Source: a virus
Taxonomy: Duplodnaviria; Heunggongvirae; Uroviricota; Caudoviricetes
Length of the DNA: 64,000 bases
Direction: 5' to 3' (one strand)
Virus record (IMG/VR): IMGVR_UViG_2721755651_000007
A program made the translations under genes and the position numbers. Positions 2,878 to 49,013 of the stretch are shown one piece after another; position 1 is the stretch's first letter; each line of letters starts with the position of its first letter. The notes beneath the pieces were generated by a model. The model had not been told where the DNA came from. It was given only the letters and a program-made list of their open reading frames with translations, and ran no database searches.

Positions 2878-3183
2878 CTAGCCGCGCACAATATTGATTT
2901 CATCAAACTGCTCGTCGTCTATGAGAAGTCCGGCATGCGTCAGCGCATCCAGTGGTGCTTTCAGGATATTGTCCAGGTCACGACGGCGCTTATCCGGTGG
3001 CTCTGCAATAATCTTTATCGCCAGCCTTCCGGACAGGTTTAATTTCAGCCGCTGCTGGCGAACAATAAGTGCCACATCCCGGCGATAACGCTCACCGGCT
3101 TTTGATACAAAATATGTGCTGCCACGACGTCGCCAGTAGGTGTTCACCGTCGGCGGGTAAGGCAAAACAAACTCTATACGCAT
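2878..3183 (-). CDS. rusA: RusA Holliday junction resolvase
   Basis: LPYPPTVNTYWRRRG ... DKRRRDLDNILKAPLDAL matches RusA family. Confidence 0.85.
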   Translation of the reverse strand: MRIEFVLPYPPTVNTYWRRRGSTYFVSKAGERYRRDVALIVRQQRLKLNLSGRLAIKIIAEPPDKRRRDLDNILKAPLDALTHAGLLIDDEQFDEINIVRG

Positions 3184-3195
3184 CAGTAACCTCTT

Positions 3196-4245
3196 TTACC
3201 CGAGCACGCCGGTTGCAAAGGCGTGATCAAGAAAACGAAAAATTAAATCAACCTGGGAACCATGCTTTTCTTCGAACGCCAGCGGATCCGCATGAAGCTC
3301 GTTGTGATGCTCCCGACACAGCGGTAGCGTGAAAATATCGTGGGATTTTGTTCCCATTCCGCCCTGACCATGACCAATCAGATGATGAGGATCGTCCGCT
3401 GGCTTACCACAACACGCACACGGCTGTGTCTTTACCCAGCGTGTGTATTTCTCATTTACCCAGCGGCGACGTTTAGGTCGTTTCATGAAGGATTCCGGAG
3501 ACTCCGGATCAACGGCAATGCTGACCACCGTCTTTTCCTGTGGTGGGTTCTGTTGCTGGTGGGTGTGAGGCGGTAGCGCAATATTTTTTGTGCGCTGCTT
3601 CAGTATGCTGGTGGCGGTCTGTTCTCCCGGTATGATGTCGCTTTCACGGTATACGGAGCGGATTTTTTCCGCCGGTAATCCCAGAGAGCGACGCGATACT
3701 GCCTCAGGTAATGCGTCCACCACCTGATTGCAGACTGCCCACCAGGATAATTCAGCCAGCGATAATTCCCGCTCCTGCGTGCCATTCATTACATGGCGTA
3801 TGACGTCAATCATCCAGGCTGTCAGATTTTGTTGAGTAAGTTGCTCAAGTGATTCGGAGGTCTGGTCGCGCAGCTGGTTGTCGCAGTGCCAGCACAACAC
3901 CATTGCGCCAGCACCGTAACTGTGAATAACGGTTTCGCTGTGATGATAATCGCCGTGTGGCCACTGGCAGGATTTCACGTGACGTAATAACCAGTCAGAC
4001 AGTGCACCAGCGCCGCCAGCTGCACGAATCACCCGCTCATCGCTGAAAAATGGCAGCAGTGATTTATCTTCCGCCAGCGGCTGGCGAACAGCAGGAACCG
4101 CTCCAGATGGCAGCGCCCGCATGTTTTTCGGTTCCGGCTCCACCAGCACCCTGCCGCGATGAAAAACTGGCAATGATTCACGACCGGGCTTAAGGACCAC
4201 CAGCCCGAGTTCCGGAACCAGAACAGGTCGAAGTAATACCCGCAC
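3196..4245 (-). CDS. DUF968-like phage protein with C-terminal HNH/zinc-binding-like motif
   Basis: C-terminal CACCGKPADDPHHLIGHGQGGMGTKSHD..PLCREHHNELH; GTG start with GGAGG SD; paralog 51613..52659. Confidence 0.55.
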   Translation of the reverse strand: MRVLLRPVLVPELGLVVLKPGRESLPVFHRGRVLVEPEPKNMRALPSGAVPAVRQPLAEDKSLLPFFSDERVIRAAGGAGALSDWLLRHVKSCQWPHGDYHHSETVIHSYGAGAMVLCWHCDNQLRDQTSESLEQLTQQNLTAWMIDVIRHVMNGTQERELSLAELSWWAVCNQVVDALPEAVSRRSLGLPAEKIRSVYRESDIIPGEQTATSILKQRTKNIALPPHTHQQQNPPQEKTVVSIAVDPESPESFMKRPKRRRWVNEKYTRWVKTQPCACCGKPADDPHHLIGHGQGGMGTKSHDIFTLPLCREHHNELHADPLAFEEKHGSQVDLIFRFLDHAFATGVLG

Positions 4246-43644: not shown

Positions 43645-44112
43645 TTAGTTCAGGCACTGAGTGCGGATATAGTCCTGTGCCCCTTCCAGCTGCTTCTGCA
43701 TTGTCATCAACCGTTCTCTGAGGATGAAATAATCCCGTTCAGCGGTGTCTGCCAGTCGGGGGCCGGTTGCATTATCCACGCCGGAGGTGCCGGTGGCTTC
43801 ACGCACGGTACCGGAGCAGGTGGCGTTGATCCGCAGGCGCTTACGACCAGCGGCAACATCAGCACGCAGAGTTTCATTTTCAGCTCTCGCATCGGCTAAC
43901 TCCCTCGAGTATTTTGCATCGAGCGCAGCAACATCACGCTGGCGCACCTGCATGTCAGTAATGGTGGCATTCGCCTGTTCCAGCTCTCTGGCTTTTTTAT
44001 CGCGCTGCGCTTTGTAGGTGAGCGCGTTGTCACGGTAATGGTTTGTTGCCAGCCACAGCGCACCATAGCCAACCGCCAGGACAATAATCACCACACACAG
44101 AACACGGTTCAT
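43645..44112 (-). CDS. Rz: Rz-like i-spanin
   Basis: N-terminal TM, coiled-coil periplasmic domain, embedded Rz1 frame. Confidence 0.8.
43707..43877 (-). CDS. Rz1: Rz1-like o-spanin lipoprotein (embedded in Rz)
   Basis: lipobox ..LVVSAC.., Pro-rich mature part; +1 frame inside Rz. Confidence 0.7.
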
Positions 44113-44265
44113 CTCTCTTTCACCCCACCAGTCCCGATAACGTCAGGACTCGCCAGGCGGTGGAAAAGAAAATGGCAACCAGCATGACTAAAAATGAAAT
44201 GCCGACAAGTACACAGAGGCTCTTCACCAGCGTTATGAGTTTATCTGATATCATTAGCCACCCCA

Positions 44266-44835
44266 TCAATCCGCCTTTGTTATTTTCCCTTTGCCTGTAT
44301 CAGCCAGGACAAAATCAATCAGCATATTCGCTTCATTTACCAGCGTACGGATTTTTGATACATGCGCGGCTTTAACCTGTTTCCACTCATTCAGCCCGGT
44401 AGCAAACACACTGGCAATGTTTTTATCCCGTTTCATGTCAGCACAAGCCTGGTTGAGTTCTTCCATCACGCTCATTTTACGGGGATTAACGACAAAACCC
44501 TTCGTCCAGTACTCGTAAAGAACATCGTCGCACTCTTCCTGATACCGGATGACCTTATCGCGGATTTCGGGTTTTACTTTGTTGGGATTAATGGTTTGTA
44601 GCCAGCCGGCAAGTTTTCGAAGTGGCATGGACACCATATTGCGTTGTTTCCCATCCTCAGCAACCATAACGATTTCCGTTATAGTTGACGCAAAACGCTG
44701 TCTTAACTTAGCCAACTGTGATTGCCAGGCCAGCCCCATCCCCGCAACGACAGGTTTCATGGGAACGTATGGTTCGCCATTATGGTTAACTACATAAAGA
44801 GAGTTGCCGTGAAACGGCACGGCCATCATATTCAT
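44266..44835 (-). CDS. ant: antirepressor (Ant-like)
   Basis: 189 aa between endolysin and Rz; AntA-like N-terminal region. Confidence 0.55.
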   Translation of the reverse strand: MNMMAVPFHGNSLYVVNHNGEPYVPMKPVVAGMGLAWQSQLAKLRQRFASTITEIVMVAEDGKQRNMVSMPLRKLAGWLQTINPNKVKPEIRDKVIRYQEECDDVLYEYWTKGFVVNPRKMSVMEELNQACADMKRDKNIASVFATGLNEWKQVKAAHVSKIRTLVNEANMLIDFVLADTGKGKITKAD

Positions 44836-45105: not shown

Positions 45106-45639
45106 TTATCTGTCGATTCCCCAGCACGCCAGCGCGCTCTCCTGGTCACGACGGGATACCTGACCGTAACAGTTATTTGAGCGAATACGGCAGTCCCTGC
45201 CACCGTCCTTAATCCACCAGCGAATCGCTTCGCAGGCACCTTTTCGATCTCCTGCATTAATCCGTCTGTAAAACGTCGACGGGAAACACTTACCGGGGCC
45301 AATGTTGTACGGACAGAATGACGCGATCCCCGCTTTCTGGGGTTCGGTCAGCGGCACTCTGATGTTTTTCTCCACCCATGCCAGCGCCTTATCACGCTCA
45401 ATGGCGTTAACCCGGTCGCATTTTTCCTTCGACAGCTTCATGCCAGGAATAACAGGCTTACCATCCCCCCGGGTGGCTCCACGGCAGATGGTCCAGATAC
45501 CCGCACCATCACGGTATGCTGTGGTGTGGTTACCTTCCTTTTCATCCAGAAACTGGTCGAGGATTTCAGGCGCAGACGCCCCTGCACCAATCAGCGCCAG
45601 AACGGCAGCCGACAGGCCGTATCTGATTTTTGCGTTCAT
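45106..45639 (-). CDS. R: SAR endolysin (T4-lysozyme-type, GH24)
   Basis: N-terminal signal-anchor-release segment ..GLSAAVLALIGAGAS..; lysozyme catalytic region. Confidence 0.85.
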   Translation of the reverse strand: MNAKIRYGLSAAVLALIGAGASAPEILDQFLDEKEGNHTTAYRDGAGIWTICRGATRGDGKPVIPGMKLSKEKCDRVNAIERDKALAWVEKNIRVPLTEPQKAGIASFCPYNIGPGKCFPSTFYRRINAGDRKGACEAIRWWIKDGGRDCRIRSNNCYGQVSRRDQESALACWGIDR

Positions 45640-45689
45640 GGATATTTATCAGGGTTTATCGATTTCAAATCCCTGGATATGTTAAGTCT

Positions 45690-46034
45690 TCAGGCCAGCG
45701 GTGGAGTCTTCAGAGAACCCGTAATTATTCCCGGTAGTTTTCCTCTGTAGGTTATCAACACATCCTGCGCCTCTAAAATTACGGGGCGCTTTTCCGGCAA
45801 CGGACCATCCCCTTCACATAACCCGGCAGCAACATCCATGAAAAACTGCTTCGCCTGCTTTTTCGCCTCAGCTTCGTAAAACTCCAGCGTGGCACCTTCA
45901 GTACGGTCAAGACTAATCGCCACATCTGGCAACAACAGTGACGGATACCCACCAATTTCCGGTGCCACAGTAACAGTAATCTTATCCGGGTAATTATTTA
46001 TCCCTTTAACAACCAGTTCGTATTTTTTCTTCAT
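45690..46034 (-). CDS. hypothetical protein between holin and endolysin
   Basis: 114 aa soluble protein; SD GGGGAG; unusual position inside lysis cassette. Confidence 0.4.
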   Translation of the reverse strand: MKKKYELVVKGINNYPDKITVTVAPEIGGYPSLLLPDVAISLDRTEGATLEFYEAEAKKQAKQFFMDVAAGLCEGDGPLPEKRPVILEAQDVLITYRGKLPGIITGSLKTPPLA

Positions 46035-46038
46035 CACT

Positions 46039-46254
46039 TTACTCTCCCCGCGCCGCCTTACGCCGGTCTTCTTTAATCTTGAAATACAGGTTCGTCAGAT
46101 ATGTCAGCAGCCCAAACAGCAGACTCCCCAGCACGCCTATCGCCACCCACTGGGACGGAGAGACTTTGTCCAGCAGCTGCAGTAACCAGTATCCCGTCCC
46201 CACCGCTGACGTGGTGTATGACACACCCGTTGTGATTTTTTCCATCTGGTACAT
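46039..46254 (-). CDS. S: pinholin (phage 21 S-like class II holin)
   Basis: ..[50 protein letters not shown] matches S21-type; dual-start MYQMEK. Confidence 0.8.
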
Positions 46255-46403
46255 ACCCCGTCTCCCGTTATCCGGAAGCTGACAACAATAAAAAAGCCAC
46301 CAGTTAACTACTGATGGCTCTGATAACTCATGCAGGCGTCTCAGACGACCCACTGACACTACCGGTGAGTTTAACGATACCTTCCATTTGACTGGCTCAC
46401 TTT

Positions 46404-48257
46404 TTATGATGATGCCGGTGCATTTATCTCCAGCACCAGACTTTCTATCTCAACGCCATACGCTGCATTTTTTGTAACATCCGTCAGCGTCAGCGCATTC
46501 AGTCCCAGTGTCAGACTGTCTTTTATAACCTGGAATGCCGGGCCAGCCACTCCATTCAGTTTCGGAGTAACCGTGGCACTGCCGGCGGTGAACACCAGCT
46601 CCAGCGTCTGCCAGTCGTTACCGTAATCGCCGAACTCCCCCAGCTTCGTGTTTCCGGCTTTCCTGTGATGCATCAGATTCACTCTGCCGTCAGTGGTCTG
46701 AGTGAAGTACGACATCAGGAACGGATTACCGGTACCCGTCATCGCCACACCATCAGGAACGGGAGCATCCGTATACAGATAAATCCCCAGCCCGAACTGA
46801 TTGTTGGTCAGTGCGCCTGACAGGCGGAACTTACAGGTCAGTCTGCCGCCCTGTGTCAGCAGGGTAATTGCGTCATCCACCGGATGCGTCAGGGACCAGG
46901 TTTTATTGCTCTGCCTGGTGATCTTAAATACACCATCTGACAACTGAATTCCGCCATCCTTAATGCTCCAGCCCTGCGCAGCAGCCTCTCCGGCTGCCGG
47001 CAGCAGGGAGATTGTGCGAACGGACGTATCTGCAGACGGACCCGATGGCGTGTTGCCGCCGGGCGAGGGTTTGATTTCCGGTGCCTTACCACTGATGAAG
47101 GCTGAGGTGCGCCCGGCTGCGTTCAGAATAGCGGTTGCCATACGATCCGGAATAATGCTCCTGCGCGCCCATGAACTGAAATGTGTCGGGCGGTTTGATG
47201 ATACCTGGTTTCCATTCGTTCTCGATGCCGCACCGTAATATCCTGATGCCGGAATATCCGGATCTTCTGCCGGCGCGTTAGTGGCGGTATTGACGCCGTT
47301 ACCGTCTGTCATGAAGGGCACAAAATAAACGCCCTCACTCTCCCTGTTTTTGTACGCCCCGTAAATGGTGTTGTACTGGGTGCCGTAGGTATTTTTCCAG
47401 TAATACGTCGTGTCACCACAAATCCACGGCACATCTGCAGCACTGCCACCATGGCACTGCGCGTTAAACACGGAGAGGTCAGCACGAAACTGTGCCAGCA
47501 TGGCTGTAAACAGCGCAGGTTGCTGTGCGTGGGTGGCGGCGCTCATGTCAAACTCTCCCTGCATCCAGCACACCGCCAGCAACACATTTTTCGGGTTCTT
47601 CTGTAATGCAGCTTTAGTGCGCGCAATCAGGTCCTGATATAACGGTTTACCCACACCCCAGCGCGCCGAATCCTGGCTGGCCCCCGCGTCCGCACTGAAT
47701 GTCCCCTCCGCGCCCTGGGTGAATGCCGAACCACCACGACAGCATGGTACCAGCAGGATCCCCGCGTTATTCGGGATATACGGAAGCAGTTTTTTGGCAA
47801 TATGTAAGCCCTGGCCGACACAGCCGTACTGCCCTTTGCTCAGGTCTGCCTTCGGATGATTCAGCGTACTCATATCCTGCACATCATGCAGGCAGTGGTC
47901 GGCCGGAATAATATCGTTATATCTGCAGGCAGCCCCACCCGGCGTAACTGTACTGCGGCGCGCCAGCTGTTTAATGCGCGGATCCGGAGCATCGTATGAA
48001 TCCGGCAGCGGAAGCCCTTCACCGTAAGCCATGGCATTGGACTGCCCGGCCAGTACGATGACGTAGTACCAATCCGGCTCAGTTGCACCACTGACCACCA
48101 CATCACCTTCTGCTGTAATCACCTGCATCAGGGTATAAGGGGTTATGGCCACCGGACTACCAAACGGCTGCCAGCCCTCTTTCAGTTTGTGTGTCAGCTT
48201 TTCCGCAAGGTCTGACGGCGACGCCGCCCTGACAACATCATAATGTTTAAATGTCAT
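46404..48257 (-). CDS. NanS-p-like sialate O-acetylesterase with C-terminal carbohydrate-binding region
   Basis: MTFKHYDVV.. N-terminal domain, SGNH/SASA-like core; location is the nanS-p slot of Stx-type phages. Confidence 0.7.
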
Positions 48258-48780
48258 TATTCCTCCCCTTTCCGGGATTTTCCTCAACAGTTGCGGGCCA
48301 CGGTCCGGCCACAAGGAGAATCAAAAGAGGAGAACCGCAGCCCGCAAAACGAAAAAGGCCGCGCAGTTGCGCAGCCTTATAAACCCTGGTTAAAATCCAC
48401 ACGATAAAAATGACAATGCAAGTATCTCATGCTGTTGCCCGAACCCACTCGGGCTTTTTTTTGCATGTAAAAAGGCTCCTGCGATGAGAAGCCTGGATAT
48501 ATGCCTAATCTCTGTATACAGCATGATGCCGGGTGCCTCCCGGTGAATTCTGCAATGACCAGACAGAATCCGCAACTTGCCTATACAATACGCAACCAAA
48601 CATCTGTCATTATGCCCCGCCGCTCAGGGGGATTCATCATGCAGGATTTTTTTAACAAACGCTCAGCATGTCAGGCAACAGTCAACTGCCTGAATTGTGA
48701 GGCATTTAACATTTCACTGTCCGGTGTCTTTCCTGTAATAAAAAGCCCGCAAAAGAGAGTCAGGGCAGATAAGTGTGGTG

Positions 48781-48857
48781 TGGTGCGTTGTACTGGATTC
48801 GAACCAGTGACCGATTGCTTAGAAGGCAATTGCTCTGTCCGGCTGAGCTAACAACGC
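48781..48857 (-). tRNA. argO: tRNA-Arg (anticodon UCU)
   Basis: 77-nt cloverleaf, anticodon loop CUUCUAA, CCA end. Confidence 0.9.
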
Positions 48858-48937
48858 AGAATACCGATAATGGACCGCCACCGGGGACTCCGAATCTCGC
48901 ACAGGGTGACGTTCTTTCCTGATGAGCTAGTGGCGGT
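48858..48937 (-). other. degenerate tRNA-like remnant (argN-position)
   Basis: 7-bp acceptor-like helix and CCA but only about 67 nt and no canonical anticodon or T arm. Confidence 0.3.
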
Positions 48938-49013
48938 TGGTGGCCCTTGCTGGATTTGAACCAGCGACCTGGCGATTATGAGTCGCTCGCTCTCACCGCT
49001 GAGCTAAAGGGCC
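48938..49013 (-). tRNA. ileZ: tRNA-Ile2 (anticodon CAU, ileX-like)
   Basis: 76-nt cloverleaf, anticodon loop CUCAUAA, CCA end. Confidence 0.85.

Follow-up and report, generated by a model that had tools for sequence, protein, structure and literature searches.

What purpose a gene serves between the pinholin and the SAR endolysin of a lambdoid lysis cassette is the question raised by this locus. The window, meaning the whole 64,000-nt stretch of viral DNA that was analysed, carries on its minus strand the late region of a lambdoid prophage similar to Stx phages; transcription runs in the order esterase, S, DUF1327 gene, R, P22_AR_N gene, hydrophobic ORF and Rz/Rz1. The first-pass annotation had described a 114-aa soluble ORF with its own Shine-Dalgarno (SD) sequence at 45690-46034, between pinholin and SAR endolysin. 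This description was confirmed by the coordinates, by the PF04971 and PF00959 matches of the two neighbours and by hydropathy, as the highest 19-residue Kyte-Doolittle mean (KD19) of the protein is 0.89 versus 1.83 for the pinholin. The features of the cassette are listed in the direction of transcription.

46404-48314, minus strand: NanS-p-like esterase gene upstream of the pinholin, 636 aa, with DUF1737, SASA sialate O-acetylesterase and DUF6645 domains
46039-46254, minus strand: S21-type pinholin gene (S), 71 codons, 71 aa; PF04971 'Bacteriophage P21 holin S', E 8.5e-33; phrog_9876/phrog_20 'holin'
46042-46049, minus strand: SD sequence GGGGAGAG of the DUF1327 gene, 7 nt before its ATG and within the 3' end of the pinholin gene, read from the sequence
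45690-46034, minus strand: YdfR-family (DUF1327) gene between S and R, 114 codons plus TGA
45640-45689, minus strand: 50-nt spacer from the DUF1327 stop codon to the endolysin ATG, with its final 21 nt, GATAAACCCTGATAAATATCC, as the leader
45106-45639, minus strand: R21-type SAR lysozyme gene (R), 177 aa; PF00959 phage lysozyme, E 1.5e-24; phrog_7 'endolysin'
44266-44835, minus strand: antirepressor-like gene, 189 aa; P22_AR_N and ORF11CD3 domains; phrog_524 'Ant'
44120-44269, minus strand: small, strongly hydrophobic (membrane) ORF, 49 aa; 'hypothetical protein' in E. coli CDC#03-98
43645-44112, minus strand: Rz i-spanin gene with embedded Rz1 (43707-43892), the end of the lysis cassette; PF03245, E 4.9e-50; phrog_13

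The DUF1327 gene begins with an ATG (46034-46032) and ends with a TGA stop codon (45692-45690). An in-frame GTG at 46037 would extend the ORF by one codon; RefSeq takes the ATG for the identical protein WP_000731259.1. A gap of just 4 nt, AGTG, separates the pinholin stop codon TAA (46041-46039) from this ATG. In cassettes with nothing between S and R the SD embedded in S serves the endolysin (locus L045), whereas in the window the same SD serves the DUF1327 gene. The leader in front of the window's endolysin (45640-45660, minus strand; GATAAAyCCTGATAAATATCC) is without an obvious SD and is kept in all filled-slot cassettes that were compared (window versus L011, L020, L036 and L063). The first codons of R also track the state of the slot, reading MNAKI or MNTKI in filled and MSRKL in empty cassettes. 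The N-terminus of the lysozyme is hydrophobic and SAR-like (KD19 maximum 1.67 at residue 9), and the pinholin carries the dual-start motif Met1, Met4. A second interruption of the lysis cassette lies between endolysin and Rz (44120-44835, minus strand) and consists of the antirepressor-like gene and the hydrophobic ORF.

The product of the inserted ORF (114 aa, 12.4 kDa, pI 5.5) matched PF07041 (DUF1327) with 155.2 bits (cutoff 25, E 5.5e-46, profile positions 1-92 of 93) and phrog_406 with an E value of 3.8e-64; no NCBIfam model matched the protein and no Rfam RNA family fell within the ORF. It is 100% identical to RefSeq WP_000731259.1, a 'YdfR family protein' of E. coli CDC#03-98 encoded among the same neighbouring genes, and to an ORF in phage YYZ-2008. 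The two family matches, the existence of 256 homologous protein clusters and a pN/pS below 1 with constrained codons 46-60 establish a real gene and not a chance ORF, and its membership in the YdfR/DUF1327 family is assigned with confidence. The family is narrow, since just 54 clusters came back when 1.84 billion representative proteins were searched exhaustively with HMMER. Of 5426 complete E. coli genomes, 3007 matched the 348-nt ORF in a megablast search, at up to 8 places per genome and nearly all of them chromosomal. Homologues were found by tblastn in 101 phage records, all of Escherichia phages, and 63 phage records carry a gene at least 95% identical to that of the window. A scan of one genome per species recovered Escherichia and Shigella, which is a lower bound on the range as a single peptide pattern was used. 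The same scan returned two further contigs binned as Veillonella parvula and a Bacillota MAG (L086 and L088, 46-47% identity to the query); both match the E. coli K-12-type allele and are probably mis-binned Escherichia prophage DNA and not evidence of a wider host range.

The order of S-family holin, DUF1327 gene and lysozyme recurs in CDC#03-98, in Stx phages and in E. coli K-12, where it reads essQ-ydfR-rrrQ and has consequently stood annotated for decades. The gene, its family and its position are thus already known, and no new entity is described here. The initial view of the gene as an unusual 'extra' did not hold, as it occupies the same slot in the Qin prophage of K-12, has an identical RefSeq entry and is present in more than half of the complete E. 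coli genomes.

Several elements upstream of the cassette were recorded as well. In Stx phages, NanS-p-type genes such as the 636-aa esterase gene lie downstream of stx; at the CDC#03-98 locus that matches at 100%, no stx gene separates Q from the NanS-p-like gene. Upstream of the esterase gene, Rfam models matched the anti-GcvB sRNA AgvB (48402-48461, plus strand; 56.6 bits versus a gathering score of 56), STnc100 (48463-48671, minus strand; 175 bits) and two tRNAs (48781-49013), one Arg-TCT and one with a CAT anticodon, which is annotated as tRNA-Ile at the matching position of CDC#03-98.

Pinholin and SAR endolysin had been taken to be normally adjacent. This applies to phages 933W, VT1-Sakai, VT2-Sakai and Min27, all of which have S and R side by side and no DUF1327 gene, but not to the IMG/VR relatives with the same endolysin type, where the slot is filled in 50 of 55 cases. 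To describe its contents, 80 IMG/VR loci with a pinholin 94-100% identical to that of the window were sampled, and a lysozyme was visible in 74 of them. The DUF1327 gene stands alone in 30 of these 74 loci, 17 of which preserve the window's 399-nt interval intact (exactly 399 nt in 16 and 404 nt in one). Another 11 loci combine it with a second domain that has no Pfam match, either fused or as a separate gene, and 9 contain the second domain without DUF1327. The slot is empty in the other 24, with S followed directly by the lysozyme gene: five have an R21-type lysozyme 4 nt past the S stop codon (3 nt in one locus), and in 19 the lysozyme is of another SAR type and its gene shares one base with S. 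A 301-nt probe across the contiguous S-R junction was covered to at least 80% in 237 phage records, as compared to the 101 records with a DUF1327 homologue. As inducible phages with nearly identical S and R do without the gene, it can be stated with confidence that it is dispensable for lysis, and the first-pass guess of a gene outside the core lysis machinery was borne out. Absence or non-conservation in close relatives had been named as the observation that would refute the first-pass proposal; the outcome was split, with 933W and the Sakai phages lacking the gene and many other relatives conserving it. The S-R junction thus serves as a slot for optional cargo and is mosaic in its contents.

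The cargo is modular. A core of 112 codons is followed by nothing (the 114-aa form), by a coiled coil (176 or 183 aa; phrog_2091) or by a coiled coil plus a C-terminal domain (297-329 aa; phrog_1085). In a blastn comparison of the window with locus L036, which has the 176-aa form, 46288..45699 aligned to 2967..3556 and 45704..45500 to 4008..4212, a difference of 451 nt. The two segments overlap by 6 nt at the junction near codon 112 (45699-45704, minus strand), and the last two codons and the stop codon of the window's ORF derive from the downstream segment. A break point near codon 112 recurs against L020, L063 and L068, and L063 carries a second, independent 114-aa form that ends at the same codon. 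The alignments may reflect a deletion in the window or insertions elsewhere. The second cargo domain (about 150 aa; phrog_36381 plus phrog_26186) is represented by 106 protein clusters, nearly all from E. coli; it occurs in the S-R slot alone or behind the DUF1327 core via the coiled coil (L011 3217-3777, L013 3220-3861, L020 1161-2150). Some filled slots additionally hold about 300 nt between the DUF1327 gene and R (L063 3565-3909, L036 3751-4073). By eye, the stretch in L063 appears to contain a small opposite-strand ORF, antisense to the late operon, which as a possible true moron is more convincing than the DUF1327 gene.

The expression context bears on whether the DUF1327 gene itself could be a moron, as had been proposed. 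A consensus scan, which is a weak test, found no sigma-70-like promoter and no intrinsic terminator next to the ORF on the coding strand, and the GC content of the ORF (0.49-0.50 versus 0.49-0.55 for S and R) shows no anomaly. Given the 4-nt gap after S, the SD embedded in S and this lack of transcription signals of its own, the gene should be made only from the Q-dependent late transcript and co-expressed with the lysis genes. A terminator-like hairpin of 12 pairs followed by TTTTTATTG lies within the late operon between the esterase gene and the pinholin start (46293-46321, minus strand) and is presumably read through by Q-modified polymerase. Of the moron proposal, the presence/absence polymorphism of the slot stood, while the expected promoter, terminator and deviating composition were missing. 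A gene expressed in the lysogen from the repressed prophage, protecting the host for example from superinfecting phages or cold stress, would fit the cargo swapping that is typical of moron sites, the up to 8 copies per genome and the cold induction of the Qin cluster, for which database evidence is cited in PMC13232886 (RNA Biol 2026). The composition of the gene nevertheless matches its flanks, a terminator-like hairpin lies upstream of S, and ydfR is essentially silent in K-12, with almost no reads under standard growth (PMC13232886). A search for known anti-phage defence proteins with PADLOC gave no credible match (best PDC-M35B, E 0.021, 12.9 bits). Taken together, a fitness or defence function in the lysogen is very unlikely.

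The gene evolves under a constraint that is weaker than that on its neighbours. Over the same 38 loci, the pooled Nei-Gojobori dN/dS was 0.48 for the DUF1327 gene, 0.12 for S and 0.08 for R, and pN/pS within the close clade of 114-aa forms was 0.36. Variation is unevenly distributed along the ORF, as indicated by the following segments, in which the domain limits were taken from the predicted structure.

45810-46034, minus strand: N-terminal domain, codons 1-75; predicted antiparallel strands 5-14, 18-27 and 38-43 plus helix 50-73; block pLDDT 69-90
45921-45965, minus strand: hypervariable segment from strand 2 to strand 3, codons 24-38; the alignment shows distinct allele classes
Codons 46-60, EGATLEFYEAEAKK: constrained stretch, sliding-window pN/pS 0.11-0.18
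45693-45809, minus strand: basic tail, codons 76-114, pI 8.4; pLDDT below 50 at residues 77-80 and 83-114; conserved to codon 112

Sliding-window pN/pS rises to 0.65-0.93 over codons 21-40. Tail codons 76-112 are about as constrained as the N-terminal domain (dN/dS 0.42 versus 0.47). On these substitution patterns, the DUF1327 gene is a real accessory gene under relaxed constraint, and the dN/dS near 0.5 is also compatible with a weak or decaying function. In one alternative reading, the ORF would be a 5' core left over from a longer mosaic gene, with little or no function as a protein, and the insert would act, if at all, in cis on the endolysin level by shifting the endolysin start from the SD embedded in S to a leader without SD. 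A remnant of this kind would account for the clean 451-nt gap relative to the 176-aa form with its final codons taken from the downstream segment, for a dN/dS that exceeds the values of S and R four- to sixfold, for the predicted disorder of the tail and for the retention of the SD-less leader before R in every filled slot. It does not sit well with the pN/pS of 0.36 among close 114-aa forms and the low values over codons 46-60, with the intact interval in 17 sampled loci and the 63 phage records at 95% identity or above, with the independent 114-aa form of L063 that stops at the same codon, or with the stand-alone K-12 homologue, which is a stable and protein-interacting product (PMC13232886). 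Such a remnant is considered unlikely.

The AlphaFold2 model of the window protein, obtained from an alignment of 19 sequences, had a mean pLDDT of 65. Its N-terminal domain is acidic (pI 5.0), and codons 1-75 are the only part common with K-12 YdfR. A model of a 287-aa long form showed the same N-terminal domain, followed by two long helices and a C-terminal domain of strands and helices. Foldseek searches gave a best E value of 0.44 against the PDB and of 0.009 against BFVD, where all matches were uncharacterised, and single-sequence and profile searches of PDB chains yielded no match. The protein was also inspected for a dsRBD, which is marked by an alpha-beta-beta-beta-alpha fold with GPxH and KKxAK motifs and by profile similarity; these were not found. 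An antiholin or membrane-bound holin regulator needs a TM segment or an exported or periplasmic domain, and the window protein has a KD19 of 0.89, no hydrophobic N-terminus and a globular predicted model.

The position between S and R allows a lysis-related role, and the first-pass annotation had named a lysis regulator as one option. In its soluble form this would be a protein that binds either the pinholin from the cytoplasmic side or the SAR endolysin tethered in the membrane, and that delays or sharpens triggering, like LydB of phage P1. The holin-lysozyme position is strictly conserved from K-12 Qin to the Stx phages, translation from the SD embedded in S would make the amount of protein track S, and the hypervariable codons 24-38 could form a partner-specific surface. 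Against such a role, the window's S21-type holin retains the dual-start (Met1/Met4) motif, which is associated with an intrinsic antiholin. The protein moreover has neither a membrane segment nor a signal sequence, the slot can carry an unrelated domain instead, and nearly identical S and R work without the gene in 933W and the Sakai phages. According to the screen list in the supplement of PMC3879167, the Keio ydfR mutant was a moderate hit in an envelope-leakage screen, which would agree with a lysis regulator; this phenotype may instead have arisen because the cassette had a polar effect on rrrQ, the lysozyme gene that follows. Of the original suggestion the position thus stands, and the absence of a membrane segment and the inducible phages lacking the gene count against the rest, so that a regulator of lysis timing appears quite unlikely.

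A literature search on the function of ydfR or DUF1327 yielded nothing beyond this screen list and PMC13232886; two comparative papers on Stx phages describe S and R, with no mention of a DUF1327 gene there in the accessible text. In PMC13232886, a two-hybrid library screen with RNase G as bait recovered residues 1-72 of K-12 YdfR, which scored higher with RNase E than with RNase G. The fragment gave the strongest signals with N-terminal constructs of RNase E and was also positive with full-length RNase E, and a full-length YdfR fusion scored only with Rne 1-597 (PMC13232886). FLAG-tagged Rne 1-598 co-eluted with Strep-YdfR from lysates, and YdfR co-purified with DNase-resistant nucleic acid (PMC13232886). 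Overproduction of YdfR changed few transcripts and did not stop growth (PMC13232886). The contact between YdfR and Rne could be bridged by RNA, as the co-purification from lysates was performed without a nuclease control for YdfR (PMC13232886).

These data suggest a reading of the locus to which a probability of about 0.4 is assigned: the DUF1327 gene would encode an optional, late-expressed, soluble cytoplasmic accessory protein, carried between S and R by lambdoid (Stx-type) prophages of E. coli, that acts on RNA turnover via RNase E. Its core is the acidic three-strand-plus-helix domain followed by the basic tail, which in other prophages is joined at this junction to a coiled coil, the second domain or both, and it would be expressed along with S and R, solely from the Q-dependent late transcript. 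Judging from K-12 YdfR 1-72, the N-terminal domain would bind host RNase E on its catalytic N-terminal half and might bind RNA too. The protein would thereby change RNA turnover in the late lytic phase, when the long late transcript, for instance, could become more or less stable, and would not act on the envelope. The RNase E step taken by itself is given roughly one chance in three for the window protein. It is proposed because the N-terminal domain, at 46% identity, covers the region of K-12 YdfR that is sufficient for the interaction; against it stand the origin of the data in a 46%-identical homologue, their nature as two-hybrid and lysate co-purification results and the few transcripts changed upon overproduction. 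The acidic pI of the N-terminal domain does not favour direct RNA binding. A more elaborate version, in which the core is a phage adaptor that docks late on the catalytic half of RNase E, a recombination hot spot at the S-R junction swaps, truncates or fuses this adaptor and codons 24-38 tune its specificity, is unlikely.

The YdfR/DUF1327 family is among the commonest uncharacterised prophage genes of E. coli, and its members are co-transcribed late with the lysis genes, to which the toxin genes are added in Stx phages. Should the reported RNase E contact prove genuine and extend to the window's allele, late-mRNA stability as well as toxin and phage yield could be influenced. If the core does serve as an adaptor, temperate phages would control host RNA decay from within the lysis cassette, and the stability of the stx-carrying late transcript could be affected. 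The optional slot, the recurrent junction at codon 112, the hypervariable segment and the swappable C-terminal modules provide a basis for experiments, although they will be unsurprising to the specialist.

Among known systems, the closest is K-12 YdfR (b1555, P76160) of the cryptic prophage Qin, which shares the Pfam family with the window protein and is likewise small and soluble. Its gene occupies the same slot, with essQ (an S21-family holin gene), a gap of 4 nt, ydfR, rrrQ (lysozyme) and rzpQ in this order. The K-12-type protein and the window protein have the N-terminal domain in common (46% identity over residues 1-74) but are unrelated beyond residue 74, where K-12 YdfR has a helical tail and the window protein a PEKRP...KTPP tail. 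Also, ydfR overlaps rrrQ (ATGA), whereas a 50-nt spacer precedes R in the window. The RNase E and RNA data belong to K-12 YdfR alone. The longer DUF1327 proteins that occupy this slot (phrog_2091, about 176-183 aa; phrog_1085, about 297-329 aa) are much closer over codons 1-112, at 85-98% identity, and their genes have the same start context after S; they continue into a coiled coil, to which the longest forms add the second Pfam-less domain of strands and helices, while the window gene ends at the junction. The cassettes of the phage 21 and 933W type agree with the window in the types of S, R and Rz/Rz1 and in their order. In 933W, S and R lie 4 nt apart, and in the window the DUF1327 gene comes in between; the Ant-like gene and small membrane ORF in the R-Rz interval of the window have a counterpart in 933W in that an ant gene is found at this place there too.

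Phage proteins that target RNase E include Srd of T4, gp0.7 of T7 and Dip of phiKZ, all of them early or middle gene products of virulent phages. The window gene differs from these in belonging to the late operon of a temperate phage, and the small effect of overproduced YdfR on the transcriptome sets it apart from them as well. The likeness would be one of role, and no relationship in sequence or fold is claimed. [quoted passage not shown]
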